From assembly GCA_964528035.1 (NCBI GenBank), contig CAZGQY010000002.1:4531-68530 (forward strand): a stretch of 64,000 nucleotides of DNA, given 5' to 3'. Shown piece by piece: positions 2,856 through 47,847 of the stretch. Both the position numbers and the translations under genes were made by a program. The notes under the pieces are model-generated. The model saw only the letters and a list, made by a program, of their open reading frames with translations. It was not told where the DNA came from and searched no databases. Origin of the DNA: an uncultured Methylococcaceae bacterium (GTDB taxonomy: Bacteria; Pseudomonadota; Gammaproteobacteria; Methylococcales; UBA1147). The stretch's first letter is position 1. Each line of letters opens with the position of its first letter.

Positions 2856-3136
2856 TCATTCGCTGCCAGCCAGGAAAAGTGAATACGAAGGCTGGTAGTC
2901 CCCGGGAGGCGTAGGTCATGTTGGATACCCGTCGTGCGGAGCGCCAGAGGGGATCCGAAATTACATCCGAAACGCCGTTCCGCCATTTGAGGCAGTCCTG
3001 GCGTAACGTTTATGAAGTACTATGTGGAGCCGTGACGAACGCAGGGCAGCCGGGGCTCAATGGTTGTCGCGTAGGCGAGTCGATTCTGGTTGACTCGGAT
3101 GTCCCGCAATCTTTCACGAGGTAGCGACTCACTTAT
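2856..3136 (+). repeat. ~280-bp dispersed element, copy A (putative structured ncRNA or IS110-type non-coding end)
   Basis: 2861-3136 matches 10318-10593 with 6 substitutions in 276 bp, and is homologous in blocks to the reverse complement of 6678-6970. Confidence 0.9.
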
Positions 3137-3164
3137 CCGAGGGTCGCGGTACAGGATGATTTAA

Positions 3165-3485
3165 ATGAAACTAAAGCGACTATACATCTTAGCTATTATG
3201 TTTTTAACCTTAGGCTCTTGCTCAATTCTCGCCGCTCCAAGTTGGTCGCCTTATGCCAATGTTGCTGAGATTAGAATATCTAAGGGCAATCTGTATGTGC
3301 AACTATCGGGCAATATACTCAACACCTGCGCCAACTTTGCAGTAGTCAATATTAGCTCGGAAGGAGCTCCTCAAATGTTCGCCATGGTGATGGCTTCCTT
3401 TACGAGCGGCAAACAGATTGGCTTATACCTCTCTGATAGATGCGATCCAACCTATTACTCCTTGCTTGGAACGAGAATCAGGTAG
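3165..3485 (+). CDS. Small secreted protein, two Cys, paralogue of next gene
   Basis: N-terminal signal peptide (LYILAIMFLTLGSCSILA). Shares the SW.PY...IS.G.LY...C...K.I.L...C...G.RI pattern with 3492-3905. Confidence 0.75.
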   Translation: MKLKRLYILAIMFLTLGSCSILAAPSWSPYANVAEIRISKGNLYVQLSGNILNTCANFAVVNISSEGAPQMFAMVMASFTSGKQIGLYLSDRCDPTYYSLLGTRIR

Positions 3486-3491
3486 GTAATA

Positions 3492-3905
3492 ATGAAGTCG
3501 CAGTGTGGATCGATGGTAGCTCGTTGGGCTTATATTGTATTGACGGTTCTTTCCCTGCATCTCGTCACACGATCTGCGCTTGCAGAAAAGACGATCGAGC
3601 AACCGACTTCAGTATCAGCACCAGCCCAAACCACTAAAGATGCGACCGAAAGCTGGGGTCCATACGAACATTTGAGCGTCGTTGAAATATCCAATGGCCA
3701 CTTATATTTGAAATCACCTTCTTATACTGTTTGTAGCGCCGGAGGCTTTCTGGCACTAGACATGACTTCAGGCACGGAATGGATAGAGTATTACACTGCG
3801 GCTATGATGGCCAACGCCAAAAACAAGAGAGTTAGCCTGCGTATTAATAGCTGCAATAATTCGACCTACGTGCCAGCGATTGGTATTCGTTTGAACGGGC
3901 AGTGA
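3492..3905 (+). CDS. Small secreted protein, paralogue of previous gene (likely start ATG 3513)
   Basis: Signal peptide MVARWAYIVLTVLSLHLVTRSALA. Stop overlaps the next start (GTGATG). Confidence 0.75.
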   Translation: MKSQCGSMVARWAYIVLTVLSLHLVTRSALAEKTIEQPTSVSAPAQTTKDATESWGPYEHLSVVEISNGHLYLKSPSYTVCSAGGFLALDMTSGTEWIEYYTAAMMANAKNKRVSLRINSCNNSTYVPAIGIRLNGQ

Positions 3906-5401
3906 TGCAAAAACAAATTCGAGTTACCCTAATATTATTGATTTGCTTAGCCACCTTTGCTGGGACTTTATTTGCGTCAAACGAATATACTGCACTATTT
4001 CAAGATAATTTTGGTCCTATCAAAACCGTTAAGAGAATCACAGTAGATGGCACGCATGCCACCATTACGGACCTAAATGGCAATGAAACATCCGGTGATG
4101 CCTGCCAACTACTTGGTTGCGCTGGTTCTACCCTTATAATCGAAAACTTCAAGATCACAGCCACAGATATAGGCCCTGAAGAAGCTTGCATTCGGCTAAA
4201 AAATAGGTCGAACATCATCGTGCGCCATAACTTTATAGGGCCGTGTTCAGGCACTACGAAATGGATAGAAAGGGCATGGGCAATTTTGGCAACTGGCAAC
4301 GGCAATACGACCTCAATTAGTGTCGAAGAGAACAAATTTAGGGAGATTGAAGCTGGCGTGCGTCTCGATCGTCTAGAAGGCGGTGCATCGATAAGCAAAA
4401 ACACCTTTTATGAGTTAGATACTACGGTCAACCTAAAGACAGGCGTGATCAGCTTAAAAGATGTTAGGGGAGCAGGTAATAGAATTGAATATAACCAGAT
4501 TATCATTAGCACAGAAAACTGTTCGAAAGTAGCCTATGACAACCCAGATTTTGATACCATAAGTGTATACAACAGTCGTGGCACAGCCGCTTCGCCAATC
4601 CAGATCGTTGAAAATCGGGTGCATGGCAGCAGTTGCCCCAGTGCACCACCACCTGGGCGCCTTCGTTCAGGGGCAGGCATCATTGTTGATGGTAAGTGCG
4701 TCGATCTATCAGGGGGCAATGGCGCCTTAGATCCAAATAAGTTATGTTTAGAAAGACCGCAAGACCATTGGAATGGTTACATCCACATTAAAAACAATAC
4801 CTTAGTTAATGCCGGACCGCAACAGACGATCGTTATTAGTGGTGGCCGAAATATAGCCGTCGAAGGTAATCGAATTTATACTAAAAGCACTACCTATTCG
4901 AATCCAATAGTTTATTCTCATTTTCAACCTATAGGCATGTCTGATTATTGGATCACTGTCTAATTTAAAAATGGCGATACTGTCGCTGCGAGCGCAGATG
5001 ATTGTAGTTCGGTTGGTGGCACAACTTGCCCATATATGCGCCAGGGGTCGTGCTATAACGTCACATTTAAGGACAATAAAATACAATTCCTCAGAAATGG
5101 AACTCCCGATCCTTCTGTGTACATCCCGCATGTGAATGAGTGGGATGAAAACTATGTCTATGGTACTAACCCACACATGCCGCCCACCCCACGTAGGCCA
5201 GACGACAAACCACCACCATGCCCAGACGGAAAACTAACGAAACCATGCGAGGGCTATAACACCTGTTGCGCTGGCGAGTTCAAAAACGGATGGTGTGCTG
5301 ATTTTTATGAAGCGCCAAGCAACTACAACCGCAATCCCTTAAAGGGAACGGGCAATGTCTATTCCGACTTTAGTTTAACGTCTGAGATTTTGATCAAATG
5401 A
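3902..5401 (+). pseudogene. Secreted right-handed parallel beta-helix protein interrupted by one in-frame TAA (4961-4963)
   Basis: Signal peptide and beta-helix repeats (NIIVRHNF, SISVEENKF, NRIEYNQI, IHIKNNTL, IAVEGNRI). After the TAA the same frame stays open (FKNGDTVAAS...CPY) and joins ORF 5036-5401, which has another repeat (NVTFKDNKI). Confidence 0.75.
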
Positions 5402-5832
5402 GGAAATAGAGCAATAAAAAAACGGTAGTTTTAGTCCAATCAGAATATAATAATCGACCTGTAAATTGTCAATTTCGGTTGGGACCAATCGGGGGGATAT
5501 TAGGCGAGAATGAACATCCTCCAATAACCGGAAACTGTCCTGAGTTGCTTTTCACCCAAGTACGACACTTAACGCCGTATGTATTTGATAATAAAAGACC
5601 TGTGGTGAGGAAATGGCATTACACGGCGTCGATCGCGGGTTTTGTTCCTCCTAAATGCTTGAATAAATCGAGCTGTTCAGCATATAGATAATCGTAAAAA
5701 TACTGCGATAATTGATCAGGGAATTTGAGGGTTGAAGACTATTTAAATTTGTATATTATCCGTGAACGGGAAGATATCCCTTTCAGACCTACAAAGATCA
5801 AATCTTAACTTTGTGATTGCGATCATGTTTTT

Positions 5833-5870
5833 GGACAAGATGTCCGAATCCGAATAATGACTTGTTAGGC
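5833..5870 (+). other. Right arm of an attC-like site
   Basis: ...TAATGACTTGTTAGGC with core GTTAGGC at 5864-5870, 7 nt before the ATG at 5877. Resembles the right arm at 7977-7993. No clean left arm found. Confidence 0.45.
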
Positions 5871-5876
5871 GTACAA

Positions 5877-6575
5877 ATGAAACTTTACAAATTTAGGTCA
5901 TTCACTCCATTCGAGTACTTGGCCGATATTTTCGTTCACGGTCGGCTATTTTGCTCTCCGTATCAAAATCTCAATGATCCGTTTGAAGGTGTCTTCATCG
6001 CTTTGATTCCTACGGACTTCGGTCGTGGATTTGGACTAAATTTCGGAATGGGAGGCACTGCTGAATTGTTGAGGACTGTCGATGACATTGACGGAGATGC
6101 CATTGCCAACAAACGAGTATGCAGTCTTTCAAAATCGTGGACTGATGTTCGCATGTGGTCACATTATGCCGATGGTCATAGAGGAGTGGCCATTGAGATC
6201 GATTTCAATGGGCTAGAAGACGAAGTTCGTGAGGTGCAGTACATCGACTCCATCGAAAAGTTTGCGTCAGGTATACTTGCCGAAAGCCCAGATGCCGGTG
6301 CATTGTTGTGTAGAAAGACATTCCATTGGGATTACGAGCAGGAATTTCGGATCCTCGGTAGCGGAGAATATTTTCAGATTGAAGGCCGTATTGGGAAAGT
6401 CTATGTAGGATCGCGGATGCCGGCCAACCACAAGAACCTCTTGCGACAACTCCTACCTTTGGGCACTCGACTGGTGGATACAGAGTTGGAGAAAAATGAC
6501 ATTACCGTTCGTGAGACTCACAGTAGAGCTCTCGATCAAGGCGAGAGTGTTGCAAACAAAGGCAATCGGCGGTGA
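5877..6575 (+). CDS. DUF2971-family protein (cassette-like ORF)
   Basis: Motifs LYKFRS, LNDPFEG, VCSLS, MWSHYADGHRGVAIEIDF and K..HWDYEQEFR. ATG 5877 is in frame with the track ORF. Confidence 0.85.
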   Translation: MKLYKFRSFTPFEYLADIFVHGRLFCSPYQNLNDPFEGVFIALIPTDFGRGFGLNFGMGGTAELLRTVDDIDGDAIANKRVCSLSKSWTDVRMWSHYADGHRGVAIEIDFNGLEDEVREVQYIDSIEKFASGILAESPDAGALLCRKTFHWDYEQEFRILGSGEYFQIEGRIGKVYVGSRMPANHKNLLRQLLPLGTRLVDTELEKNDITVRETHSRALDQGESVANKGNRR

Positions 6576-6677
6576 TTGTGCCGTTCACAATATTACACAG
6601 GCGCTTGCCTGTGCCTAAATCAAGTACTGACTTGTTTACGCTGTAAAGCGCGAATGCTCCAGGACGTTATCCCGGTT

Positions 6678-6970
6678 ATAAGCGAGTCGCTACCTCGTGA
6701 TAGATTTCGGGACATCCGAGTCAACCAAAATCGACTCGTCTACGCGACAACCATTATTGCCCCGACCGTCCTGCGTCCGCGCCGCTTCGCCACACCATTG
6801 CAAGCTCGGCGCAGGCTACACAACACTCCCTCAAATGACTGGACACGATTATTCGGATGCCTACTTTGTTTTCCCTCTGGCGCGATTCGCACGCCGGAAA
6901 AACAGTGCGGCCTGATCGTTATCGGGGACTCATCGCCTTCGTTTTACTCTCCATGGCGTTCAGCGAATGA
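6678..6970 (-). repeat. ~290-bp dispersed element, copy B (diverged, inverted)
   Basis: Reverse complement shares ordered blocks with copy A (TCATTCGCTG, ACGAAGGC, AGTCCCC, GCGCCAGAGGG, CATCCGAA, CATTTGAGG) and a near-identical 3' ~75 nt ending GAGGTAGCGACTCGCTTAT. Confidence 0.85.
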
Positions 6971-7031
6971 AGTTTCAACTACCGGATTGCGCCGGTCGCG
7001 AGTCTATCGCGTGACCGTCCGCAGATAGTCC

Positions 7032-7060
7032 ATTACTGACCATTCCAAATGGTCAATAAT
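7032..7060. promoter_or_regulatory. 13-bp inverted repeat upstream of the recombinase (candidate binding or recombination site)
   Basis: ATTACTGACCATT-CCA-AATGGTCAATAAT, one mismatch, 31 nt before the ATG. Confidence 0.6.
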
Positions 7061-7091
7061 TTGGTTCCTTTTTACAGAAGAGGAACTAATC

Positions 7092-7718
7092 ATGGATCAA
7101 TCTACCAACTCAAATAGTGAAAAAGAACCCTGGAATAAAGGCAAACTGGTGGGTCAAAAACCACCGCTAAATCTCAAAGAAATCTGGGCCATCCGGATCC
7201 GGTTGCAACTCGCAAATCGAATTCGTGACCTAGCCCTGTTCAATTTAGCCATCGATAGTAAATTGCGTGCCTGCGATCTGGTGAAGTTGAAAGTCCGAGA
7301 TGTATCTCATGGAGATCGAATTGCAAAAAGGACGATGGTGTTGCAACAAAAAACCAAACAGCCCGTCCAGTTCGAAATCATGCAACAAACGAGAGAAGCC
7401 ATTTTTCTGTGGATCAATCATGTCAATCTAAAACAAAATGACTACCTCTTTCCAAGCCGAATCAAAAATTCTCCCCATTTGTCGACGCGACAATATGCCA
7501 GGATTGTGGAATCATGGGTTGTATCCATAGGCCTTGATCCAGCAGCTTATGGGACACATTCACTTCGTCGAACTAAAGCGTCTTTGATATACCGACGGAC
7601 CAAGAATTTAAGGGCCGTGCAGTTGCTCTTAGGGCATACGAAATTGGAAAGTACCGTTCGCTACCTAGGGATTGAAGTTGATGATGCATTGGAGATGGCG
7701 GAACAAACCGAAGTTTAA
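7092..7718 (+). CDS. Small tyrosine recombinase/integrase (PWNKGKLVGQKPPL family), intact catalytic residues
   Basis: DSKLRACDL (R), QKT (K), GTHSLRRT (HxxR), LLGHTKLESTVRYLG (H, Y). 208 aa. RBS GAGGA. No IntI-type insertion domain. Confidence 0.93.
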   Translation: MDQSTNSNSEKEPWNKGKLVGQKPPLNLKEIWAIRIRLQLANRIRDLALFNLAIDSKLRACDLVKLKVRDVSHGDRIAKRTMVLQQKTKQPVQFEIMQQTREAIFLWINHVNLKQNDYLFPSRIKNSPHLSTRQYARIVESWVVSIGLDPAAYGTHSLRRTKASLIYRRTKNLRAVQLLLGHTKLESTVRYLGIEVDDALEMAEQTEV

Positions 7719-7735
7719 TAGCGGATTTTTATCGG

Positions 7736-7779
7736 AAGCGGCTGTTTTTAACAGTCGCTTTGTGCTCAGGAGCTGACGT
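7736..7779 (+). other. Hairpin plus palindromic site just downstream of the recombinase
   Basis: AAGCGGCTGTT-TTT-AACAGTCGCTT overlaps GTCGCTTTGTGCTCAGGAGCTGACGT; related motifs recur at 9936 and 10000. Confidence 0.55.
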
Positions 7780-7845
7780 ACGTGAAATTTTTCGCTTGCC
7801 CCAAGCTAAAAGTCAATAAGCGCCTTCAAGGTTTCTGTTAGAAAC

Positions 7846-7993
7846 TACTAACAACGTCATAATCTACGGAATTGGATATCATGTTGTTTTAGGATGATAT
7901 ACAGTTAAGCAATTGGACCGAATTCACAAAATCGTTGTCTTGGAAACGAAAAATTGGGAAGATATGTGGAAACTTTATAATTGCTTGTTAGCT
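7846..7993 (+). other. Candidate long attC site
   Basis: CTAACAA at 7848-7854 pairs with TTGTTAG at 7985-7991. Partial inner symmetry (CATAA/TTATAA, GATATC/GATATG). Precedes the ORF at 8025. Confidence 0.45.
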
Positions 7994-8024
7994 GCGTTTG
8001 GAGCATGGAGCTAGATTAATAACG

Positions 8025-8783
8025 ATGCTATATAAATTTACTCCCACCCTAGATATCGCTGAAAAAGTCTCTACTGGAATATTCCGCTTCTATGAATTAA
8101 CCAAGTATATAAAAATGGAAGATGAAGTGGGACGATCAGATCCAGAAGAGTGCTCGGTTAGTTTTCCTACTAAAGAATATGAAGAATTCCCAGACAAGCT
8201 ACCTATAGGTAGCTTCAGAGGCATTGAATTCAAATGTATTAGCACTGGAAATAACGAGGAACATATTAGGCAATATTTTGTGTTTTGCATGAGCACAGAA
8301 ATGGATAAAAAAGCAATTGGTGACTCTAGATATATTGTTGAACTTTATCGAGATAACTTTGATTTATTTATGCAGCTCCTAAACGAACCATTTGATGATT
8401 CTGCAAATCCCGAAGGTCACCAGTTCTTTAGTCATGGTGAGGTGAAGTACTACAACATACATAACCACCCTAAACCGTTTATAGGAAATAGGTGGCGTGA
8501 GGTGTTTGTAAAACACTCTGATTTTAATTATCAAAATGAATATCGGGCAGCCTTTTTTGCTTCAGATCACTTCTTTGATAGAATTTCAGGTAACCCCATG
8601 GTGATCGAGAAAAAAATATTCGATCAAAATAAGGAGCCAATGAGTTTTAATTTGGAGCTGTATGTTCAGTCAGGTATCGATGATGAGGGTTGGCGCTATA
8701 TTGAACTTGATATTTCAGGGTTCGCTGCCAATATAAGCCCTGAACAAAGTAACATTACAGAGCTTGTTGCTGAGATAACTTGA
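8025..8783 (+). CDS. Hypothetical cassette protein, distantly DUF2971-like
   Basis: MLYKF start, FVFCMS and VKHSDFNYQNEYR echo the DUF2971 motif order. Followed by a clear attC. Confidence 0.7.
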   Translation: MLYKFTPTLDIAEKVSTGIFRFYELTKYIKMEDEVGRSDPEECSVSFPTKEYEEFPDKLPIGSFRGIEFKCISTGNNEEHIRQYFVFCMSTEMDKKAIGDSRYIVELYRDNFDLFMQLLNEPFDDSANPEGHQFFSHGEVKYYNIHNHPKPFIGNRWREVFVKHSDFNYQNEYRAAFFASDHFFDRISGNPMVIEKKIFDQNKEPMSFNLELYVQSGIDDEGWRYIELDISGFAANISPEQSNITELVAEIT

Positions 8784-8796
8784 ACATTCAAGCAGC

Positions 8797-8862
8797 AGCT
8801 AACAAGGCCAGCCAGAGGGGCTTTCGCACTACGTACTCCCGCCCCTGCTGGCGGCGTTAGAG
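8797..8862 (+). other. Integron attC site (59-be type)
   Basis: Inverse core AGCTAAC and core GTTAGAG. Left arm GCCAGC[C]AG[A]GGGGC vs right arm GCCCCTGCTGGC gives two unpaired bases (G and T on the bottom strand), the canonical extrahelical pattern. Next ATG is 5 nt downstream. Confidence 0.85.
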
Positions 8863-8866
8863 CATC

Positions 8867-9748
8867 ATGCTACAGGATGCACCGCAGATAACCGAAGAAG
8901 ATCTTCAGAAATGCAGGGACACTGGCGACTATAGCCCCGTAATGTTCGAATGGTACAAGTTTGTGGCGGGTCTATGTGTCACGTTTTCAAACTTACTCCA
9001 AGAATCGCCCGTGATCCGTAAAGACATCTCAGAAAGAGACTACGGAATACTTATTGGCCTGATTAATCGGGCTTACCGATTAATGCTAACCAACGTGGCC
9101 CTTTCTCACGAAGGGGAATTCGGCGAATCTACAAGTATCCTTGATCGCTGCATATTCGAAAGCTGCGTCATTTTGAGTTGGCTATGTGCCACAAATACCG
9201 AAGATAGATTCGATCGATATGTTGCGTCAGGTCTTAGGACGGAGCTCGAGCTAAAGGACCAAGTTAATCTCGCCCTTGAGAAAAGAGGCGGAGATGTTCT
9301 CTTAATCGAGAAACGAATGTTGGACTCTGTTGCAGACTGTATTGCGGAAGCGGGTTTTGTTGACGATCAGATTCGAGAAATGAAACCGCTTCCTAATCTA
9401 GCAGCGATGCTAGAAGCCCTTGGTTACAAGCGCTTTGCTTATACAGCGGGCCAAAGAATCGGATCGCATCATGTTCATGGTACTTGGGTAGGGTTAAGAA
9501 ACCATTTCATTGAGAAAGAGGAAGATACTGGTCGTTATCGCGCACGACAGAAAAGTTACACTCATATCAACCAATATGTTTACATTACGAGTATTGTATT
9601 AGCTGCACTATCTAAGTTCGTTGATTTCGTATTTGAAGATGCCGATGAGGAAAAGGGCGAGATATTAAATCTATTTGAATCTACGGACGAAAATATACGA
9701 ATGCTAAATATTGAAATCGTTGGTGGGGATTTCGATGCGATTGCCTAA
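8867..9748 (+). CDS. DUF5677-like (HEPN-type) cassette protein
   Basis: ILDRCIFESCVILSWL (R..FE) and GSHHVHGTW motifs. Promoterless start directly after the attC. Confidence 0.7.
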   Translation: MLQDAPQITEEDLQKCRDTGDYSPVMFEWYKFVAGLCVTFSNLLQESPVIRKDISERDYGILIGLINRAYRLMLTNVALSHEGEFGESTSILDRCIFESCVILSWLCATNTEDRFDRYVASGLRTELELKDQVNLALEKRGGDVLLIEKRMLDSVADCIAEAGFVDDQIREMKPLPNLAAMLEALGYKRFAYTAGQRIGSHHVHGTWVGLRNHFIEKEEDTGRYRARQKSYTHINQYVYITSIVLAALSKFVDFVFEDADEEKGEILNLFESTDENIRMLNIEIVGGDFDAIA

Positions 9749-9800
9749 AGTGTCCACGAAAGTCGTGCTAGATCACGCACCTATTTCGCAGGCGTTAACC
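9743..9800 (+). other. Degenerate attC candidate
   Basis: GCCTAAA overlaps the stop codon and GCGTTAACC lies 58 bp later; inner arms pair poorly. Confidence 0.3.
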
Positions 9801-9845
9801 AATTCAATATAAGGCCCGCTGTCCGATTCAGGTTGACTCTTGCCT

Positions 9846-10020
9846 GTCGCGACTCTATCCCGTGACTGCCCGGAGTTAGTCCTTTCCAGTCAGACGAAAT
9901 ATTTAACCCATGATTCGAGCAGCTTGGAGACGATTGACCGGTTGTGCTCAAGTGCGGACGTTCGCGTATCGATGAAAGTCTTATTGCGACCGGCTACAGT
10001 CTGTGCCAAAAGCAGGCGTT
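9846..10020 (+). repeat. Cluster of short palindromic sites related to those flanking the recombinase
   Basis: 9846-9872 matches 6995-7021 at 23/27. 9936-9962 and 10000-10020 share TGTGC(T/C)..A..GC.G(A/G)CGT with 7754-7779. Confidence 0.6.
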
Positions 10021-10317
10021 CGTTAAAAATTCCCTATCTGTGTTCCTATAAGCAAAAAGCTAGACGCGCGCTCTAAGCCGTTGGGGCATTGGAAAGAAGT
10101 ATCACTGGCACTGAAAGAACATTTAGATTTTTAACGCCAGAGATTTCTTCAAAATGGGATTTGTTGCCAATTTGGCCAAATTCTATCGCGATCAAATTGA
10201 TATCGAATAAAAACAATTGTATCGTATCAATGACAAGACTTTTTCTAAAAATGAGCATGGGTTTTCGGTCTACAAATGGGGCTTAATGTAGACGAGGCGT
10301 CACTTAATTGCTGCGAC

Positions 10318-10593
10318 CGCTGCCGGCCAGGGAAAGTGAATACGAAGGCTGGTAGTCCCCGGGAGGCGTAGGTCATGTTGGATACCCGTCGTGCGGAGCG
10401 CCAGAGGGGATCCGAAATTACATCCGAAACGCCGTTCCGCCATTTGAGGCAGTCCTGGCGTAACGTTTATGAAGTACTATGTGGAGCCGTGACGAACGCA
10501 GGGCAGCCGGGGCTCAATGGTTGTCGCGTAGGCGAGTCGATTCTGGTTGACTCAGATGTCCCGAAATCTTTCAGGAGGTAGCGACTCGCTTAT
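10318..10593 (+). repeat. ~280-bp dispersed element, copy C
   Basis: Direct repeat of 2861-3136, 270/276 identical. Confidence 0.9.
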
Positions 10594-11606: not shown

Positions 11607-13038
11607 ATGAGCGCTAAATATTTTTGCTTCCGTCAACCAGTTTCACCCGTCACCGGTTGTGGCATCTGTTTTCAAAACAACAATGTTTTAGGATTAACAC
11701 GACCTGGAAAATTATTCATTATTCTTTTCGGTTTCGCTTTGCAAGTCATAATTCCTGTAAACAGCGAACCGCTTAAACTCGAGTACACCTCGCCTCCATC
11801 GCCTGACATGCCGGCGAAATCAATCGAGATTAATGAACCCCGCGGGGAGTTATCGTTGGCTACGGCTTTGTCGCTGGCTTTGTCGCACAATCCAACACTA
11901 GCTGCTGCATCCCGAGAAATCCAAGTACAGGATGGAGTCGTCCAGCAAGCGGGACTTCTGCCTAACCCGGTATTCGGCGTATCGGCTCAGAACTTCGCAA
12001 ATTCAAGATTGCAGGGAGTTGACGGTGATGCGCTTAATTGGAGCCTTTCTCAAACTGTTCTGCTCGGCGGTAAGCGCGCCAAAGCGATCCGGGTCGCGGA
12101 GCTTGGTCGGGAGCTTTCCGTATGGGACTACGAAAGCAAACGAATGGATCTATTAGCCGAAGTTGTGCTGAGTTATATCGGTCTTGTAAAGGCTCAGCAG
12201 GGATTGAAACTTGCCGATGGCCTGGTAAAGCTTGCCGACCATATGATGGAGGCGGTCACTGTCCGTGTCAAAGTCGGCGAAACTTCACCAGTGGATGAGA
12301 CACGCGCCCGGGTAAGTCTGGCTTCCATACAAATCGAAAAGCAGCGCGCGGAGCGAGCATTGGCAACGGCGCGAAAACGGCTGGCGGCCACCTGGGGCAG
12401 TGCCTCTCCGGAATTTGAAGTTGCCCAAGGCCAACTGGAAACGGCAAAACCAATTCCTTCTTTCAGTGCTTTGATGGATCGCATTGCTCAAAACCCCCAA
12501 TCTTGCCCGCTGGGCCAGCGAGACGATTCAGAGACAGGCGTCCATTGATCTGGCTAGTAGCCGTGCGATTCCGAATCTGACGATCAGCCTCGGGGTTCAG
12601 CAATACCTAAAGACCGGTGACAATGCTTTAGGTGCGGGAATTTCGATACCCATACCCCTTTTCAACCGCAATCAGGGCAATATTCTCCAGGCCAACCGGC
12701 GTTTCGACAAAGCCCTGGATCGACAACGGGAAACTCAAGTTTTGGTCAGCACAACTCTGAATACAATCTATCAGCAATTTTCCGCTGACTACGCCGAGCT
12801 CAGCATTCTTGAAACAACGGTCCTGCCGGGTGCGCTAAGCGCCTTCGAGGCCGTGCAGGAAGGTTATCGCCGGGGCAGATTTAACCTGTTGAATGTACTC
12901 GATACACAGCGCACGCTGTTTGACGCCAAAATACAGCATCTAAGGGCTTTGGCAAGTTATCACCAATCGAGGATCAAGATACAGCGTTTGATCGGAGAGC
13001 CTCCTGAAACGGCGCAAAGCTTGGAGGTCAAAAATTGA
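11607..13038 (+). pseudogene. czcC: CzcC-like TolC outer-membrane factor split by a +1 frameshift
   Basis: ORFs 11607-12548 and 12484-13038 encode consecutive TolC halves. Removing one C from the C5 run at 12494-12498 restores RIAQNPNLARWASE. Confidence 0.85.
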
Positions 13039-14516
13039 AAAATCTACAAGCAGTTGCATGCCAGATGCTCAATATTCCATTCACGATGACAGTCGGTCAA
13101 AAATCAGGCGGCCTTCCATCGGAACCACCAGTGAGCTTTGGATCTTCAGTCAGAACAGATAAGCGAGTCGAAATCATGGATCATTTAGAAAGTAGCTTAA
13201 TAAGCCCCCTGATAGGCTTAATTCTTCTTATTCTTGTACCTATTCATGGGCAAACAAACCAACTGGATTACAAGAATTCTAATCCGACGATGCCAAATAA
13301 GGAACACGTGAACGAAATTGAGGAGCAACACGCACACGACAAACATGCTAACGAAAGCGGCAAAAACGCCCGTGAAGGCGAAAATCATAACGATCATGAT
13401 GTCGGTAAAGAAAAAATGGACCATGAAAACGAACAAGACGAGCATAACTCGCTCAAATTCAGTCCGGATGTACTTAAAGAGTTTGCCATCAAATTGGCAC
13501 AAGCGAATTCCGGGTCCATTAGGGAAACATCGCTCCTGTCGGGCGAAGTAGTTGTTGCTCCCGACAAGCTTTTTCACGTTATCCCTCTGGCGGCCGGCGT
13601 GGTCCGCAAAGTCTTCAAACAATTAGGTGACAGCGTCAAACAAGGCGATTTATTGGTAACGCTTTCCAGTCGGGAACTGGCTAATGCTAAAACAAAGCTC
13701 GTTGCTGCCAACAGCCTCTTGCGGTTAGCTGACGCGAGTCTGAAACGGGAGCGCGAACTGTATAAGAAAAAGGTCACGGCTAAACGGGAATATCTTGAAG
13801 CAAAACAGGCTCAAACTAAGGCGGCTATCGAGCTTAAATCAGCCAAACAAGGCCTTTTGGCCTTAGGGTTATCCATCCAGGATGTAGTTTCAGTCCTTCG
13901 TTCTAGTGGCGACGATTTGACGCGTTATGAACTTCGTTCTCCGGCAGAGGGCATCATCATTTATAAACACGCAGTTCATGGTGAAATTCTGAACACTGAA
14001 ATCAAAGCTTTCACTATCGCGGATCTGGATCGGGTATGGATTAATTTGACCGTTTATCAAAAGGATTTGCCTCTTATTCATAAAGGTCAGGCCGTACTGA
14101 TCTCTACACGCCATGGTTCGTCGGCGGAACAGTCAGAATTTCGCGGTGTTATCGATTGGATCAGCCCGACCCTTTCCGAATCCACCCGCAGCGGCACGGC
14201 GCGGGTCATACTTGATAATGTAAACAGGCGATGGCGTCCCGGGTTGTTCGTGAATGGAGCAGTTGTCATAGCTAAAACCGCAGCCAAAGTCGTCATTCCG
14301 CGAAGCGCATTGCAGAATATTGAAGACCGGACCGTGGTCTTCGTCCAGGAAGGCGACGAATTCGAGCTGCGGCCGGTACAACTGGGCCGAACAGACACCC
14401 ACCGGGTAGAAATCGTGCAAGGTCTTGAGTCGGGCGAAACCTTTGTCAGCAAAAATGCTTTTACTCTCAAAGCACAAATGTCAAAGAGTGCATTTGGCGG
14501 CGGACACTCGCATTAG
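13035..14516 (+). CDS. czcB: CzcB-type membrane fusion protein with His-rich N-terminus (likely start ATG 13176)
   Basis: GDSVKQGDLLVTLSSRELA, YELRSPAEG, LDNVNRRWRPGLFV; His/acidic tract; ends GGHSH. Confidence 0.9.
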   Translation: MKNLQAVACQMLNIPFTMTVGQKSGGLPSEPPVSFGSSVRTDKRVEIMDHLESSLISPLIGLILLILVPIHGQTNQLDYKNSNPTMPNKEHVNEIEEQHAHDKHANESGKNAREGENHNDHDVGKEKMDHENEQDEHNSLKFSPDVLKEFAIKLAQANSGSIRETSLLSGEVVVAPDKLFHVIPLAAGVVRKVFKQLGDSVKQGDLLVTLSSRELANAKTKLVAANSLLRLADASLKRERELYKKKVTAKREYLEAKQAQTKAAIELKSAKQGLLALGLSIQDVVSVLRSSGDDLTRYELRSPAEGIIIYKHAVHGEILNTEIKAFTIADLDRVWINLTVYQKDLPLIHKGQAVLISTRHGSSAEQSEFRGVIDWISPTLSESTRSGTARVILDNVNRRWRPGLFVNGAVVIAKTAAKVVIPRSALQNIEDRTVVFVQEGDEFELRPVQLGRTDTHRVEIVQGLESGETFVSKNAFTLKAQMSKSAFGGGHSH

Positions 14517-39195: not shown

Positions 39196-41473
39196 GCTGG
39201 ATAGAATCGCTCTCGGAATCATCAATCGGTATTATTTTTTGGAAATACAATTGAAATTGATTCTTTTCCAGTCCACGAGTGATTCGAGAAACCCAATCCA
39301 TTTCCCGGCTGTGGCGCTCGACTTCCAGGTCGGCCATTTGGAACACCTGAACACGGTTACGGCCATTAAATTTAGCCAGGTGGCAAGCTGTATCTGCTGC
39401 ACTTAGCACACTTTCTATATCAGTACTGTCGGCGGTTAATGGTGCCAGACCAATGCTTGCTCCAATATTGAATACCTTATCCCGCCACGTGAACCGGAAA
39501 CCGTGGATAGTTTCTAGCAGCGCACGCGCCAGCCGCTCACCCTGATCAACTGAACAGCCTTCCAATAATATTGCAAATTCGTCGCCGCCAAGCCGCGCCA
39601 GGGAATCCGATTGACGCATCTTACTTAGCAATAAACCTGACAATTGTTGCAACAACTCATCACCAGCCAAATGACCACAGGTATCGTTTACGACTTTGAA
39701 TTGATCGAGATCCAGATACATTAAGCTATGTGTCTTTTGTGTTGTTCTCGCGTTATCCAGCGACAGTTTCAACTGCTGTTCAAATTCTCGACGATTAACT
39801 AAACCCGTCAGGTCATCGTGACTGGCTTGATAGGAGAGTTGATTGGCCAGGTCTTTTGCCGAAGTCATGTCATGAAACACCAATACCGCGCCAGACCGCT
39901 TACCCTCGCGGGTCAATATTGGTGCAGCAGAATCTTCGATGGCATATTCAATACCGTTTTTAGAAATCAGTATTGTGTGGTTGGCGAGCCCTGTCACAAT
40001 ACCCTCTCGCAATACTCGACCCACCGGGTTCTCGACGGGCTCTCGGGTCGTCTCGTTGATAATATTAAATATTTGCTCTAGTGGCCGCCCGTGGGCTTGC
40101 ACTGTCGACCACCCTGTCAGTTGCTCGGCAACTGGGTTTAAATAGCTGACATGGCCATTGGAATCCGTGGTTATTACCGCATCGGCAATACTTGCGAGTG
40201 TCACCTGAGCCAGCTCTTTTTCTCGATATAATGCATCCTGCACCGCTTTGATCTCAGTAATATCACGAGAAATTGCAATCAATCGGAAAGGTTTACCGAG
40301 GTCGTCGAGCAAAGACGTAATTTTGACGTCCCAATATTTGGATTTACCTGAGGCTGTAGGACAGGCGCCGCTAAAACGGCCAATTAATCCGCATTTGGCA
40401 TCCTTGATTGCTTTGCGCATATCTGCAAACGAAGCTTCAGGCCAAAACTCTAACCAGCTTTTACCGATATACTCGCTATTCTCATCGATTTCCATCAAAC
40501 AAAGTCCGGCGTCATTAATTGAAATAAGACGCGCTTTTAAATCCAGAATTTTAATGCAATCGCTGCTACTGTTTAGAATTCTGCGGTTTAGTTCCTCGCT
40601 GTTGTGCAAAGTTCGTTCGGCTTTTTTTCGCTCATTGATGTCGTTTACGATGGCGACATACACCGACCCCGTACTCGCACCTGAGCGCTGTATACGCACA
40701 TCAACAGGATATTTACTTCGGTCACTACGTCGAACAATCGATTCGAATTCGGCCTGATTGCGTTGAGCAAAGTTCAATGGATCCAGTAGTTCTTTGCATT
40801 TTTTTACAGTAAACGCTTTATTCAATGCAGATGGCGTCATTTGTCTCATTTCTTCGTAGGAGTATTGCAGGTTAACAAGAGCGTTTTCGTTTGCGTACAG
40901 AAAATGCAGGGTATTAACATCGAATACATAGATCTCGCTGAATGATCGATCCAGGGTCATACCAAAACTGGTGGCTTCTGTTTCCGCTTTCTTCAATTCA
41001 AATAATGAAACGACTACAGTGGCAAGCTCTTTGATCATAGATCTTTGTTCACTGGAGAGTGAATTCGGACGTTGATCCAGCAAAGCCAGTGTTCCCAGCG
41101 TAAAGCCTTGTGGGTTAATCAGAGGCATACTTGCATAGAAATGTAGATTCATATCGATAACCAGAGAACTGTCCGAATAACGGGAATCGTTTGCCAGGTC
41201 CTCTATCTCGGTGAGATCAGTGTGCAATATGGCTTCCGCGCAGGGCGCTGAATCGCGGGGAATTTCTTTGATATTTTCCAAACCGTAGGTCGATTTTAAC
41301 CATAAGCGACTCTCATCTACCAGGCCAATACAGGCAACAGGCATCTGGCAAGTATTAGCAATGAGTCGTGTAATGTTATCGAATAGATTCTCTACGGGGG
41401 TATCGAGAATGCCGTACTCGTTAAGAGTTGCAAGACGTAGTGCGTCGGACGCTGGAGCAAGCAGATTATTCAT
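39190..41473 (-). pseudogene. GAF-multiPAS-GGDEF protein with EAL domain truncated at its start
   Basis: HDDLTGLVNRREF, DLDQFKVVNDTCGH, ARLGGDEF intact; the EAL start FQLYFQKIIPI...IQH then breaks before the E-x-L-R motif. Confidence 0.85.
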
Positions 41474-41753
41474 GGGCCAAGCCGCCTTGAATTTATGATA
41501 GCAAGTTACAATGCATCGTCGTAATTTTGTAGTCTGCAGTACCGACTATTGTGAATACTGACTAATAATACGCTATTAATGTTTGATAACTTTTTGAATT
41601 ATCGATGCCAATATGAAAAGTCTCAAACATTAAATTTGCTTTTTTAAATATATTTTTGAATAATCTAATAATCGCAATGGCTGGTTTTGCCTGTCGGAAT
41701 CGAGTGATCAAATTTCGCTCGAAAAGGGTTCCGAACCGCACTAATAACTTTGC

Positions 41754-42512
41754 TTGAAAATAATAGACATCACTATGCCTCAGGAAATACTGATTATCGA
41801 TGACGAACCGGAGATACGAGTTTTATTAGCGCGGTATTTGGAGGAAAGCGGATTTCAAGTGACTACTGTTGAAAATGGCATGGCCGCGAAAGAATTTTTA
41901 GCGACTAGCCAGCCGGTTATGATCATTTTAGATCTTAAACTTCCTGATATCGATGGACTGGAACTGGCACGGGAAATTCGTGCCTCCAGTAGCCTACCGA
42001 TCATTATGCTAACCGGTGTGGGTACTGAGACTGACCGCGTAGTCGGATTAGAACTGGCAGCCGACGATTACATGACCAAACCGTTTAGCCCTAGAGAATT
42101 ATTAGCACGTATTAAAGCAGTACTCCGGCGAACCGGCCAGACATGGCAGGCAAACCCTGAAGGGCGTTTGAAAAATAGCGTTAAATTTGCCGATTGGACA
42201 CTAAATTTAACACTAAGAGAACTTGTTTCCCCGGTTGGGGAGACAATTAAGTTAACCAACAACGAGTTTAAGTTACTGGTGACGTTTATCACTCACCCTC
42301 AGCGGGTCTTAAGCCGTGATAAATTGCTTGAATTAAGCCGAACCGATCCGGCCGAGGTATTTGATCGAACCATTGATTACCTGGTATTGCAACTCAGACG
42401 TAAACTCGAGATAGATCCATCTCATCCCAAAATAATTAAAACAGAATGGGGTGCCGGTTACATATTTAACGCCGAAGTAATTCGGTGCGATAATTCGGAT
42501 TCTCCAGAGTAG
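41754..42512 (+). CDS. OmpR-family response regulator (likely start ATG 41775)
   Basis: ILIIDDE, IILDLKLPD, ADDYMTKPF, winged helix with IKTEWGAGY. Confidence 0.93.
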   Translation: MKIIDITMPQEILIIDDEPEIRVLLARYLEESGFQVTTVENGMAAKEFLATSQPVMIILDLKLPDIDGLELAREIRASSSLPIIMLTGVGTETDRVVGLELAADDYMTKPFSPRELLARIKAVLRRTGQTWQANPEGRLKNSVKFADWTLNLTLRELVSPVGETIKLTNNEFKLLVTFITHPQRVLSRDKLLELSRTDPAEVFDRTIDYLVLQLRRKLEIDPSHPKIIKTEWGAGYIFNAEVIRCDNSDSPE

Positions 42513-42550
42513 GCTTGCCCCTAAATTTTAGCCCCGCTATTGCGCGGTTG

Positions 42551-43159
42551 GGTTGTGTCGCAAAAACATGTCAAACGATGACTTTCGGTATCCTGCCCCG
42601 TTTTGATTGAAATGGGGAGTACCATAGATCGATGGTTCAACTCTAAGGGCGTACATTTTCAGATGGATATTATTTTGACGTGCGGCGCTTGGAGCTATTT
42701 GTATCGACCTGTAGACAGGGCCATGCAAACCATTGACTACCTGCTTACGAAAAACGTGATCGGAAAACGACGCTTTGAATCAAAAAAACTATAAAAACAA
42801 TGGGGAACATGAGAAGTTCACGATTGGAAGGAGCTGCGCTAACAATGCAGCCGTCGATACCTACAATGAAGACATCCAGACTGACATTGAACTGGTTCAG
42901 TTCATGTGTATCAAAAATATCGTCGAGCAAGATTATCGGGCCATTAAAGGTATCGTTCGAGCGTTGATGGGCTTTAAATCGTTCCGTTCTGCATGCAACA
43001 TTGGCAGAAATCGAACGAATGCACGGGCTAAAGAAAGGGCAACCGGCTGATTATTTAGTGTCGATTCCGATCCCCGCAGTCCAATCCTATTCATTGATTG
43101 GGTAAACGGTAGTCGAACCAGGATTATTGTTACTGTCAATGAAAATTTGTGATACGAGC
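42551..43159 (+). mobile_element. IS6-family remnant with internal deletions and frameshifts
   Basis: Fragments KGVHF..DIIL, W.YLYRPVD...TIDYLLT and NIVEQDYRAIK...GFKSFRSA; IR-like ends GGTTGTGTCGCAAA and degenerate TTTGTGATACGAGC. Confidence 0.8.
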
Positions 43160-43343
43160 AGATAATCTGGGATAAGGTTCTTGTTCAAATAATCAGTTTA
43201 TAGGATTAACTGAAATGACTTAAGTATATATGTATCTACATATTTGTGAATGGCTTTACCCACCATTTTCTAATTAAGAATGGAAGAAAACTAATTTATA
43301 TTAATTACTCTTTTGGGTGTTGAATGATAGACTTATTCGACTT

Positions 43344-43541
43344 ATGAATATTTCTTTTCCAACGCCACTGACCAAAGAATTGACAATTATTCTTATTGTT
43401 AAGCTCATTTTAATTATCTCGATTAAAGTGATGTGGTTTTCAAACCCGGACACCACCGTTGAAGAAACGCTTCCTCATGTATTATTTGGCAGTGAAGCTA
43501 ATAACACTTTGTCTTCTACCCGTTTTATTAAGCAGGACTAA
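43344..43541 (+). CDS. cydP: CydP-like small subunit upstream of cydA
   Basis: [27 protein letters not shown]; position directly before cydA. Confidence 0.7.
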
Positions 43542-43546
43542 CAATA

Positions 43547-45130
43547 ATGGTCTCTGAAGCAGTTGTTGAACTTTCCCGATTACAATTTGCAATTACCGCA
43601 TTATTTCATTTTATTTTTGTCCCCTTAACCATGGGGTTAACGTTTTTGATAGCGATTATGGAATCCGTTTACGTGATGACGGGCAAAGAAATATATAAAG
43701 ATATGGTGCAATTTTGGGGAAAGTTATTCGCCATTAATTTTGCTATGGGCGTGACAACGGGTCTTACCCTGGAATTTCAATTCGGTACGAACTGGGCGTA
43801 TTACGATCATTATGTGGGTGATGTGTTTGGCGTACCTCTCGCTATTGAAGGTCTTATGGCATTTTTTCTTGAATCGACATTCGTCGGTTTGTTTTTCTTT
43901 GGTTGGAATCGTCTATCTAAAGTACAGCATTTATCAGTTACCTGGTTGGTCGCTATCGGTTCAAATCTGTCAGCTTTGTGGATTTTAATTGCCAATGCCT
44001 GGATGCAACATCCAGTCGGTGCCGAGTTCAATTATGAAACAATGCGAATGGAGCTAACCAGTATTTCAGAGGTGATTCTTAATCCTGTTGCGCAAGTGAA
44101 ATTCATTCATACGGTATCTGCAGGCTATGTAACTGGCTCGATGTTCGTTTTAAGTATTTCAGCGTGGTATTTATTAAAAGGTCGAGATGTTGCTTTTGCC
44201 GTGCGTTCATTCGCGATTGCTGCTGCTTTTGGTTTTGCAGGGGCAGGCTCGGTTATTTTACTGGGGGATGAAAGCGGCTATGAGGCTGGCCAAATTCAAA
44301 AAATGAAACTGGCCGCAATTGAAGCTGAATGGGAAACAGAACCCGCGCCTGCAGCCTTTACGCTGGCGGGTTTACCTGATATGGAAACCCAAGAAACAGA
44401 TTATGCCGTTACAGTTCCATGGTTATTAGGTCTTATTGCCACGCGCTCTATAGATACTGAAGTGAAAGGAATTTTAGATATTGTTGATGATAACGAATTC
44501 CGAATTCGTGAAGGCATAATTGCGTATGCACTGTTGAAAAAACTCAGAAATGGTACGGCAAGTGATGGGGATAAAGAATCATTTGATGAAATAAAAAAAC
44601 ATCTGGGTTACGCCTTATTATTAAAAAAATATACGGCCGATCCGACAATTGCAACAGAAGATCAAATCAAACAAGCGGCATTAGATACTATACCTAATGT
44701 ACCTGTTTTATTTTGGGTGTTTAGAGTCATGGTTGCCTCTGGAGTCATTATGCTGGTGTTGTTTGGCCTCTCCTTTTTCTTTACCAATAGTAAAAAACGA
44801 TTGAGTGAACGCCGTTGGTTACTTCGTTTTGCGGTAATCAGCCTTCCCTTACCATGGATAGCTTCTGAAGCTGGCTGGATTGTTGCTGAATATGGTCGAC
44901 AGCCATGGAGTATCGGTGGAATATTACCCGTTAATTTAAGCACATCCACACTCACCACGAGTGATCTGCATTTTAGCATTGGTGGTTTTGTTTTCTTTTA
45001 CAGTATGCTGTTTATTATCGAAATGTTTCTTATGATTAAATACGCGAGATTGGGACCCAGTGCGTTATATACAGGTAAGTATCATCATGAAAAGTCTAAT
45101 CAGTTAGGGCATGGAGAAAATCATGTTTGA
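43547..45130 (+). CDS. cydA: Cytochrome bd ubiquinol oxidase subunit I
   Basis: [40 protein letters not shown]. Confidence 0.97.
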
Positions 45131-46226
45131 AGTTGAAACATTACAACTCATTTGGTGGGTGTTGATCGTTGTATTATTTACTGGATTTGCACTCACAGAT
45201 GGTTTCGATATTGGCGTTGGAATTTTGCTGCCGATCGCTGGAAAAACAAATACTGAACGCCGTATTCTGATCAATGCAATCGCTCCACACTGGGATGGTA
45301 ATCAAGTGTGGTTTGTACTGGGGATTGGTGCTTTATTTGCCGCATGGCCACCCGTTTATGCAACGGTATTTTCGCTGTTATATGTACCCTTGATGTTATG
45401 CTTGTTTGGCCTTTTCTTTCGCCCTGTTGGGTTTGATTATCGCGCTAAAATCGATAATGCAACATGGCGTACTTTCTGGGATTGGGGTATCTTTACTGGC
45501 AGTGCCTTACCTATATTTTTACTGGGTTTGAGTGTTGGCAACTTATTCTTGGGTATCCCTTTTGATATTGATGAATTCCATCGCCCAGTTGTCACCAGTT
45601 CATTTCTTGGCTTATTTAATCCCTTTGCTGTTTTTGTCGGCTTATTAACGCTGGCTCTGATGATTTTGCATGGTGCGACCTACGCTCAAGTTCGAACTGA
45701 AGGCGAGCTGTTTCATCGGTTGACTCGTTTTGCACGTTATTCGAGTCTAACAGCCATAATCTTATTTGTTATTGCGGGTGCAGCGTTGGCACTTTATATC
45801 AAAGGTTATTTTATCGATTCTGATAGGCTTGTTAAAACTGAAATAGGTGCTTGGTTAAGTGGCTATACAAACAGAGGTATAGCAATTGGCTTGCCTCTAA
45901 TCAGTATTATTGGGCTAGTTTTAGCTTATTTAAAAGCAGGCGAATCAGCTGTACTTGCTTTTTCAGGCAGCACAATAGCTATGGCAGGTGTACTAACCAC
46001 CGCCGCAACCAGTTTATTTCCATTTATTGCGCCTTCATCTATTTCAATGGACGATAGTTTGACGGTCTTCAATGCAACCTCCAGTCATTACACACTGACT
46101 ATTTTAACAGTCATGGCTATGCTTTTTGTACCCATCATACTGGGGTACACATTTTGGTGTTATCGCGCAATGTGGGGACGCATCACCGAAAAGTATATTA
46201 AAGACAATGGTCATTCGCTTTATTAA
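45111..46226 (+). CDS. cydB: Cytochrome bd oxidase subunit II (likely start ATG 45123)
   Basis: [34 protein letters not shown]. Confidence 0.96.
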
Positions 46227-46245
46227 GCAATCATCGGACATAATA

Positions 46246-46356
46246 ATGTGGTATTTCACTTGGATACTAGGCGTACTCTTGGCTTGCTCATTCGGCATTA
46301 TTAATGTGATGTGGCTGGAATTAAATGGAGACTTGAAAGAAGGTGAAGATGAATAG
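46246..46356 (+). CDS. cydX: Cytochrome bd small subunit CydX
   Basis: MWYFTWILGVLLACSFGIINVMWLE. Confidence 0.92.
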   Translation: MWYFTWILGVLLACSFGIINVMWLELNGDLKEGEDE

Positions 46357-46452
46357 ATAAGAAGGAAAGTTATTTAATAAGTACTGAACTCTAAACCTGC
46401 AATCCATTTATAAATTTACTCTTTCTTCGTTGCGGAATTACTATGAAATAAT

Positions 46453-47650: not shown

Positions 47651-47847
47651 GATAATAATTTTTAAATTTGGTGTTAAAAAAATTAGGGTACAACTGGTAC
47701 ACGATGTAAAAATTTTCAGGCTGCTGCATTATTAATTTAGGCACTGATTGCGTTTACTCTTTGTTTTTCTTGTAAAGCCTTTAAGATAGGGTACTTAAGG
47801 TATATGCAAACAAGGCCCTGTCAGGTACAAATTAATGAATTGGTGCT

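Follow-up and report, generated by a model that had tools for sequence, protein, structure and literature searches.

Within a 64,000-nucleotide stretch of contig CAZGQY010000002.1 from an uncultured Methylococcaceae bacterium (the window, whose positions are used throughout), the gene for a 208-aa tyrosine recombinase lies between two short recombination sites of opposite orientation. With a probability of about two in three, the DNA from 7024/7034 to 7760/7770 (~0.74 kb) is a minimal, insertion-sequence-sized integrative element with the recombinase as its only gene. An earlier note on this DNA had proposed that the recombinase family may recombine at degenerate palindromes and so constitute an integron-like gene-capture system distinct from IntI/attC. 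We found that the recombinase and its two flanking sites appear to be the mobile unit itself, and that the sites read as ordinary double-stranded core sites (arm, 7-bp overlap, arm). The strongest evidence beyond chance is outside the window: the sister contig L001 diverges from it inside the copy of one site at 9942-9964, and sites of this type flank the gene throughout its family.

Evidence for mobility of the recombinase unit

We compared the flanks of ~170 loci that carry members of the recombinase family. Across 5193 pairwise high-scoring segment pairs, homology essentially never extends past ~-130 nt or ~+110 nt of the gene. Copies that are 97-99.9% identical are found in different species and contexts, also on plasmids, and their identity, confined to 723-743 bp in the closest copies, stops inside the two sites and delimits a unit of 725-745 bp with 16-bp terminal inverted repeats. 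For example, the units of L030, L034, and plasmid pPUV-1 (a Pseudomonas metagenome-assembled genome [MAG], Stutzerimonas chloritidismutans, and P. aeruginosa) are 99.6-99.9% identical; those of L029, L119, and the second copy in L034 (Pseudomonas sp. GWSMS-1, a metagenome contig, and S. chloritidismutans, of which strain AW-1 has two copies) are 99.4-99.6% identical; and two copies in a single betaproteobacterial MAG (L056 and L075) are 99.7% identical. As with an insertion sequence, a discrete unit with defined ends is therefore found near-identical in unrelated contexts.

Among the near-identical units, identity starts at (T)GGCCGGTTAGCGACC and stops at GGTCGCTAACCGGCCA, and in some copies the break falls on the inner edge of the 7-bp overlap. 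Exchange on either side of the overlap region would give exactly this pattern. Similarly, L020 and L089 (P. yangonensis and plasmid pPA942-IMP45) have 5.4 kb and the unit in common and diverge directly after CCGGCCA. Overall, 254 of 385 homology breakpoints (66%) lie no more than 15 nt from a site centre, compared with 0.8% of random positions. From these alignments, we infer that the unit is mobile.

Architecture of the recombination sites

The layout is the same across the ~170 loci: a left site, a Shine-Dalgarno hairpin, the 208-aa recombinase, a 3' hairpin, and a right site that is inverted relative to the left one. The upstream family sequence reads GAACGTCCGCTTC-TGGCCGG-TTAGCGACC, followed by the Shine-Dalgarno hairpin and the gene. 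Downstream, a hairpin with the 3' arm GGTCGCT is followed by AA-CCGGCCA-GAAGCGGACGTTC, which is the reverse complement of the upstream site. With a weight matrix built from 48 right sites and a threshold of 11.65 bits (the 99th percentile of control windows), the right site is recognized in 46 of 81 loci and the inverted left site in 39 of 82; the remaining loci are sub-lineages with diverged sites. Solo palindromic sites also exist, for instance GAACGTCCGCTTCTGGCCAGAAGCGGACGTTC and a perfect palindrome in L173, TTACTGAACGTCCGCTTT-ATACTG-AAAGCGGACGGTCAGTAA. This palindrome, together with the junction data, argues for an ordinary core-type site in which arms of ~11-13 bp surround an overlap of 6-7 bp.

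In the window, the left core, site L, occupies 7010-7043 on the - strand; read on the + strand, its outer arm is 7010-7023, its overlap region 7024-7034, and its inner arm 7035-7043. Its position is equivalent to that of the left sites of L007 and L090, and the unit's left boundary would fall within 7024-7034. The right core, site R (7751-7784, +), has the same position and orientation as its counterparts across the family and consists of the inner arm ACAGTCGCT, the overlap region TTGTGCTCAGG, and the outer arm AGCTGACGTACGTG, which would place the right boundary within 7760-7770.

These assignments account for two recurring motifs that had been taken for the sites of the recombinase. The first (6995-7021, +) does recur at 9846-9872, with 23 of 27 positions identical, and the likeness continues to 36 of 49 positions (6995-7043 vs 9846-9894). 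Its 21-nt core is found at only two places in the 64 kb, where none is expected by chance. This motif forms the distal portion of the left-site region and shares bases with the outer arm of site L; both L090 and L001 contain homologous sequence in their 3' junction regions. The second occurrence of the motif marks a second left-site region, L' (9846-9893, +), in direct orientation to 6995-7043.

The second motif, as first typed, gives no match; in the corrected form, TGTGCY.A...GC.GRCGT, it is the overlap and outer arm of three right-type sites. Its copies at 7760-7782 (site R) and 9942-9964 are 83% identical, as the claim of recurrence would have it, whereas the third (10000-10020) aligns with them only across a 1-nt gap and agrees instead with the consensus of the wider family. 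The second copy belongs to site R' (9933-9964, +; TTGACCGGT-TGTGCTC-AAGTGCGGACGTTCG) and the third to a weaker R-type site, R'' (9994-10022, +; ..CAGTC-TGTGCCA-AAAGCAGGCGTTCG, compared by eye with the family consensus GGCCAnAAGCGGACGTTC). All copies of both motifs are intergenic and bracket the open reading frames (ORFs) at 8025-8783 and 8867-9748, as noted earlier, and together L' and R' look like a ~120-bp gene-less derivative of the unit. That the motifs are the cognate sites of the recombinase family is borne out by the same site type flanking the gene family-wide and by a junction inside one of them.

A junction inside site R'

The recombinase of the window is encoded, as an identical protein, in seven metagenome contigs, with the same immediate context and in the same orientation; the metagenomes with this protein include ERZ27251151, ERZ27249630, ERZ27251152, and JGI 3300009481. 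L001 (137 kb) is 99.93% identical to the window over 3013-9963 and then diverges inside R', where TTGTGCTCA|AGTGCGGACGTTCG in the window is replaced by TTGTGCTCA|GGAGCTGCCATTCAG in L001, so that the break falls in the overlap, TGTGCTC(A). Beyond this junction, L001 has a different right arm and different downstream DNA. Its first 170 nt are 75% identical to two tandem segments of L090, whose recombinase is 88% identical in protein sequence to that of the window; there follow a PIN-like ORF, a 3' junction region homologous to one of those in L090, tRNA-Leu, and RNase R.

The inverted arrangement of the two sites raises the question of a self-inverting switch, in which recombination between L and R would flip the recombinase gene or its neighbors, as in FimB/FimE systems or shufflons. 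FimB and FimE do resemble the recombinase in size and domain content (~200 aa, catalytic domain only, no core-binding domain) and in using short sites with flanking half-sites; in addition, inverted sites enclose the gene, and the window's whole module is itself framed by inverted 276-bp repeats (copies B and C, described below). Yet no locus shows both orientations against a shared flank, since L020 and L089 as well as the seven contigs with the window's protein have one orientation only, and the left and right overlaps often differ, which disfavors recombination between them. The invertase models also stay far below their cut-offs (PRK09871, 30 vs 222 bits; PRK09870, 18.8 vs 221 bits). In contrast to FimB/FimE, the gene lies between its own sites and is horizontally mobile, and identical units in different species would be left unexplained. 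We therefore regard such a switch as very unlikely and retain the integrative element as the preferred reading.

Hairpins at both ends of the gene

Three structures surround the gene in the window. Upstream, the 13-bp inverted repeat reported earlier is present at 7032-7060, with ATTACTGACCATT (7032-7044) and AATGGTCAATAAT (7048-7060) complementary at 12 of 13 positions. The left arm of the repeat doubles as the inner arm of site L, and the repeat is the left-end equivalent of the 3' hairpin structure. It overlaps the sequence ATGGT(A/C)AATAAT, which is conserved in the sub-lineage and may be a -10 region or an operator. Next, a Shine-Dalgarno hairpin (7061-7089, +; -13.4 kcal/mol, z = -3.1) pairs GAGGA with an upstream anti-Shine-Dalgarno sequence. 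Downstream, the 3' hairpin (7736-7760, +), also reported earlier, folds at -11.3 kcal/mol (z = -3.3), and none of 200 shuffled sequences folds as well; the 3' arm coincides with the inner arm of site R, of which the 5' arm is an inverted copy.

Both hairpins are general in the family. In 147 of 157 units, at least three of the four Shine-Dalgarno bases are paired as part of the 3' arm in the minimum-energy fold. These hairpins have a mean folding energy of -12.3 kcal/mol (mean z = -2.3), and their arm sequences differ widely. The structure is likely a translational control element, and burying the ribosome-binding site in this way appears to keep expression of the recombinase low. The 3' hairpins (165 units; mean -23.7 kcal/mol, z = -2.9) have no T-run after them and are composed of the inner arm, often with the overlap as well, plus an inverted copy of both.

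One further resemblance to the site lies within the gene. The codons for a conserved LxGQKPPLK motif, ~47-80 nt into the recombinase gene, resemble the site (e.g., L061 10060 and L044 10048) and reach 11.65 bits or more in 23 of 169 units, a score that no other part of the gene attains in any of the 169; the window's copy lacks the resemblance.

Observations that weigh against a mobile element

Several observations count against the integrative element and are gathered here. The window's own sites barely exceed the threshold (R, 12.1 bits; L, 11.9 bits; vs 11.65 bits), and genomes hold few copies of the family, from one to four. The window and L001 agree for at least 4 kb upstream of site L; therefore, what distinguishes the two is not the minimal unit. 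In many members, the left overlap is CCGACCC and the right one CCGGCCA, and this mismatch complicates a simple attL x attR excision.

In addition, no matched empty target site was found among the loci examined, and no circular junction was seen in the contig comparisons, which cannot test for circles. In 628 plasmids, mostly of Klebsiella, a phosphite-oxidation module (phnCDE-ptxD-lysR) stops at one nucleotide (..CACTTATTGG). This is the nucleotide where the unit starts in pPA942-IMP45 and P. yangonensis (L089 5927, L177 3628, and L178 3628). Past this left junction, the 628 plasmids run on into unrelated DNA, so they provide a shared left junction and not a clean empty site. A search through the P. 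aeruginosa megaplasmids was swamped by ISCfr1, and one through the relatives of pMOL30 gave a single breakpoint beside a GGTCGCT motif, too weak to use. Finally, the left and right outer arms of a given copy match each other barely better than non-cognate pairs do (7.81 vs 7.33 of 14 positions, p = 0.036); therefore, simple insertion into one palindromic target is not demonstrated.

A recombinase reduced to its catalytic domain

The recombinase is intact, as the earlier note had it. The ORF at 7092-7718 matches PF00589 (E = 3e-20) over residues 41-192 only, and alignment to known recombinases covers only residues 41-198. Alignment to XerD identifies the catalytic set R59, K87, H156, R159, H182, and Y191, six residues that vary little or not at all among 36 relatives. 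In the AlphaFold model (mean predicted local distance difference test score, 79), residues 1-20 are disordered and one helix (28-40) precedes the catalytic domain. The best Foldseek structures are XerA, XerH, Tn1549 Int, and Cre (probability 1.00 for XerA, XerH, and Cre), and all structural matches are 70-140 aa longer. Both the catalytic residues and the fold place the protein in the tyrosine recombinase superfamily. Because only a single helix precedes the catalytic domain and the structural matches are that much longer, the model indicates a recombinase without the core-binding domain that "simple" tyrosine recombinases have; in a 2021 classification, these are described with a core-binding plus a catalytic domain (PMC8138268). 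Tyrosine recombinases of fewer than 200 aa were regarded as probably defective in a survey from 2012 (PMC3414803).

The family is very large and uniform, with more than 8000 clusters at 90% identity. All 8000 scored candidates matched it, nearly all members are 208 aa long, and those among the matches listed are 75-89% identical. It occurs in at least 574 species genomes, mainly of Beta- and Gammaproteobacteria, and is common on large plasmids, including pMOL30 and the P. aeruginosa megaplasmids, while viral contigs rarely carry it (17 loci). The closest genome-derived relative of the window's protein is that of L007 (87% identity), and a protein-based metagenome scan returned relatives that are 69-81% identical among the matches listed; scanning metagenome DNA for the pattern of the 3' hairpin as it stands in the window gave 0 matches. 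To our knowledge, the family is annotated only as "tyrosine-type recombinase/integrase". Literature searches by concept, accession, and site sequence found no description of it; subscription journals were outside their reach, so that a prior description is possible.

The structural matches and the prevalence on large plasmids would also suit a housekeeping or plasmid multimer-resolution recombinase, Xer- or Cre-like, acting at a nearby resolution site. Xer/dif and the pdif modules of Acinetobacter plasmids likewise have sites of two arms around a ~6-7-bp centre, with inversely oriented bounding sites, and Xer proteins are among the nearest structures. In those systems, however, host XerC/XerD act on the module, whereas here a single protein without a core-binding domain is encoded inside it. 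Moreover, the Xer equivalog models score far under their cut-offs (XerC, 63 vs 335 bits; XerD, 46 vs 330 bits), as does the curated XerA model. Two sites per gene and local clusters of extra sites do not fit a resolvase, and unit-bounded identity and gene-less derivatives would be unexpected from it, which makes a resolution function scarcely credible next to an integrative element.

Extra sites and gene-less derivatives

Sites are not restricted to the flanks of the gene. At 20 bits or more, we found 147 sites, compared with 7 in a reversed-sequence control, and ~80 of them are not the gene's own flanks. The extra sites have a density of 0.15-0.2/kb within 2 kb of the gene and of ~0.1/kb up to 7.5 kb, falling to 0.044/kb at 7.5-10 kb, where the control gives 0.025/kb. 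Among them, neither side nor orientation is preferred (23/19 upstream and 17/20 downstream). Left-then-right pairs that enclose no gene outnumber the reverse order by 62 to 16. Such pairs typically span ~70 bp and consist of outer arm, overlap, inner arm, loop, inner arm, overlap, and outer arm. We read them as probable miniature non-autonomous derivatives or excision products.

The same distribution bears on a system analogous to RAYT/REPIN, in which a vertically inherited recombinase would maintain palindromic repeats genome-wide. The gene is indeed flanked by inverted repeat copies, and solo palindromic copies of ~70 bp exist. Nevertheless, the motifs of the window are not scattered repeats of this kind, as the density of sites is near background by 7.5-10 kb and the window holds no distant copies. 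The near-identity of copies across species and plasmids does not suit vertical inheritance either, and the protein belongs to PF00589 and is not an HUH enzyme. On the evidence of these loci and of the window, we consider a REP-like system highly improbable and read the solo copies as candidate derivatives of the integrative element.

The neighborhood of the gene is otherwise variable. No conserved neighbor gene was found, with 145 Pfam families among 148 neighbor ORFs, and no defense family recurs among the nearest neighbors. An element of the IS1182 family (ends TCTGTTGAAAAAGT / ACTTTTTCAACAGA) occurs time and again as an insertion within the GGCC-containing overlap of the sites (L088 4331-5931; L025 7624 and 13706; L034 815; L052 6228), and these positions suggest that it targets them. 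The recurrent flank ACTTTTTCAACAGA, which we had entertained as a second partner site, was rejected on this account, being the end of the IS1182-family element inserted into the overlap.

Individual loci have further features. In L091, a perfect 1803-bp inverted repeat (7958-9760 and 12312-14114) brackets the recombinase; each arm is a 474-aa ORF without a Pfam match, and the repeat may stem from two unknown insertion sequences or from misassembly. In L007, a group II intron reverse transcriptase/maturase (279-1256) lies directly upstream of the recombinase, and the relative L175 has a SIR2-STAND NTPase as its neighbor (295-2760).

Cargo genes and the question of an integron

To the right of the unit, between site R and L', lie two cargo ORFs: one of 252 aa with no known family (8025-8783, +) and one of 293 aa with a DUF5677 domain (8867-9748, +). 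An attC-like imperfect palindrome, GCTAAC...GTTAGAGC, separates them (8795-8861, +). Judged by folding, it has an energy of -16.6 kcal/mol (z = -2.25), unpaired spacers, and a bulge, and it hints at integron-type cassettes in the island, with no IntI nearby.

Relatives of the window have more to offer in this respect. L090 contains tandem modules with a 796-bp period, whose conserved 5' and 3' ends are bracketed by sites, and window positions 9881-10013 are 80% identical to L090:6294-6424. In L090 and L173, small ORFs and toxin-antitoxin pairs lie between recurring junction regions with left- and right-type sites. Modules thus appear, from their sequences, to be exchanged at the sites in the window's sub-lineage (L090, L001, and L173). 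Because modules with conserved ends recur between sites there, cargo capture or exchange at the sites is plausible. To that extent, the earlier idea of gene capture survives, but arrays are not a general feature of the family.

An integron-like platform would go further: the recombinase would stay in place, insert and excise circular cassettes at an adjacent site, and build gene arrays. The tandem modules of L090 would suit it, as would the extra PIN-like module after R' in L001 with its 5' region 75% identical to the L090 modules, the small co-oriented ORFs and toxin-antitoxin pairs around the gene in L173, and the direct repeats R and R' that bracket the two ORFs of the window. Integrons, too, combine a tyrosine recombinase with nearby repeated sites, and the small ORFs with conserved ends in some relatives and the attC-like hairpin in the window's cargo recall them. 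On the other hand, the DNA on either side of the gene is variable in the family, arrays are missing from most loci, and the unit itself appears to pass from one species to another. Nor is the protein an IntI (TIGR02249, 18.2 vs a cut-off of 265 bits; PRK15417, 15.4 vs 435 bits); the sites read as double-stranded core sites rather than folded attC sites, and neither a fixed platform nor a shared promoter arrangement is present. That an ordinary attC-like palindrome separates the two cargo ORFs may also count against a true integron analogy.

Since the extra sites lack an orientation bias and there is no conserved partner gene, the integron-like reading is only partly supported. Furthermore, it is just as possible to take the "cassettes" for ordinary DNA that separates successive insertions of the unit and its gene-less derivatives. 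We consider an integron-like organization, as proposed in the earlier note, unlikely for the family as a whole, and continue to favor a mobile unit around which cargo may be exchanged.

The surrounding island

The unit lies inside a ~9-kb island (2303 to ~11600), which by eye is bounded by the end of an RND pump gene on one side and by a czcCBA-like operon on the other. The island contains three copies of a ~276-bp repeat (repeat R), each of which holds a site-like GAGTCGATTCTGGTTGACTC. Copy A (2861-3136, +) is 97.8% identical to copy C (10318-10593, +), its direct repeat 7457 bp away, while copy B (6678-6965, -) is inverted and diverged. Metagenome contigs of 7417 and 7462 bp start and end inside these repeats. 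Copies A, B, and C are unlikely to be terminal repeats of the element: L001 has no copy C, and repeat R is in none of the other loci compared.

Just upstream of the unit, a DUF2971 protein (5880-6572, +) matches PDC-S31, a candidate defense family of PADLOC (E = 2e-50). Near the right end of the island, the ORFs at 11607-12548 and 12484-13038 overlap in different frames upstream of czcB/czcA-like ORFs and, by eye, look like one frameshifted outer-membrane efflux gene. Farther away, the stretches 41000-47700 and 52000-64000 combine low G+C (0.37-0.44) with a strong positive GC skew and may be further foreign islands. Rfam searches at gathering and E-value thresholds and a tRNA scan of the window gave nothing relevant.

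A proposed mechanism

The order of elements at the two ends (outer arm, overlap, inner arm ... inner arm, overlap, outer arm) is the attL/attR geometry universal to integrative elements and Tn916-type transposons and leads us to propose a mechanism of that type. The site architecture, the boundaries of the unit, and the junction at R' are seen in the sequences; the chemistry, a circular intermediate, the choice of target, and the co-mobilization of cargo are what we infer. Each end of the unit would be the element-side half of a core site, contributing the inner arm and the 7-bp overlap, with the outer arm coming from the flanking DNA. The recombinase would cut and rejoin within the two overlaps and thereby excise the unit, and the excised product would re-insert at sites with consensus-like arms, which are often palindromic. 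Mismatched overlaps would be tolerated during the exchange, and gene-less derivatives that keep both ends would move likewise.

Where several sites lie close together, the same reactions would lead to deletions, fusions, and exchanges. Left and right overlaps that differ would suppress futile inversion. More speculatively, they would allow DNA between left- and right-type sites to be swapped, similar to cassette exchange with heterospecific lox sites. In the window, the two cargo ORFs, lying between the autonomous unit and the putative L'-R' derivative, could travel if L and R' act as ends.

Discussion

The unit looks like a site-specific integrative element that has shrunk to insertion-sequence size with a catalytic-domain-only enzyme, in a family that is apparently undescribed. 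Its closest parallels in organization are the attL/attR sites of lambda-type elements, Tn916, Tn1549, and CTnDOT, in which element-side arms likewise form terminal inverted repeats and flank-side arms supply the other half-site. These elements also share the breaks on either side of a 6-8-bp overlap and the tolerance of non-identical overlaps, and Tn1549 Int is among the top structural matches of the window's recombinase. Unlike them, the unit encodes an enzyme without an arm-binding or a core-binding domain, has no Xis or transfer genes, measures ~0.74 kb rather than 5-60 kb or more, and has gene-less miniatures. The IS607 family and the eukaryotic Cryptons are comparable as minimal elements with a site-specific recombinase as the sole mobility gene; however, IS607 uses a serine recombinase, and Cryptons are eukaryotic, larger, and without these terminal repeats.

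We tentatively suggest, at somewhat less than even odds, that this is the first recognized bacterial family of insertion-sequence-sized elements moved by a tyrosine recombinase. Such elements would combine ~0.74 kb of DNA, 16-bp terminal inverted repeats, one catalytic-domain-only enzyme, their own gene-less miniatures, and cassette exchange, between paired sites with differing overlaps, of the element and neighboring cargo (e.g., candidate defense genes), and they would be widespread in Beta- and Gammaproteobacteria and their megaplasmids.

If this is true, a very abundant protein family would prove to be the engine of a minimal mobile element, and the known classes of insertion sequences would gain one that uses a tyrosine recombinase. 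This would also account for many breaks in assemblies and many mosaic junctions, both in accessory regions and in megaplasmids such as the P. aeruginosa resistance megaplasmids and pMOL30. The family would also offer an example of a recombinase that, as its model suggests, works without a core-binding domain, and a very small single-protein recombinase with ~30-bp sites would be a candidate tool for genome engineering.

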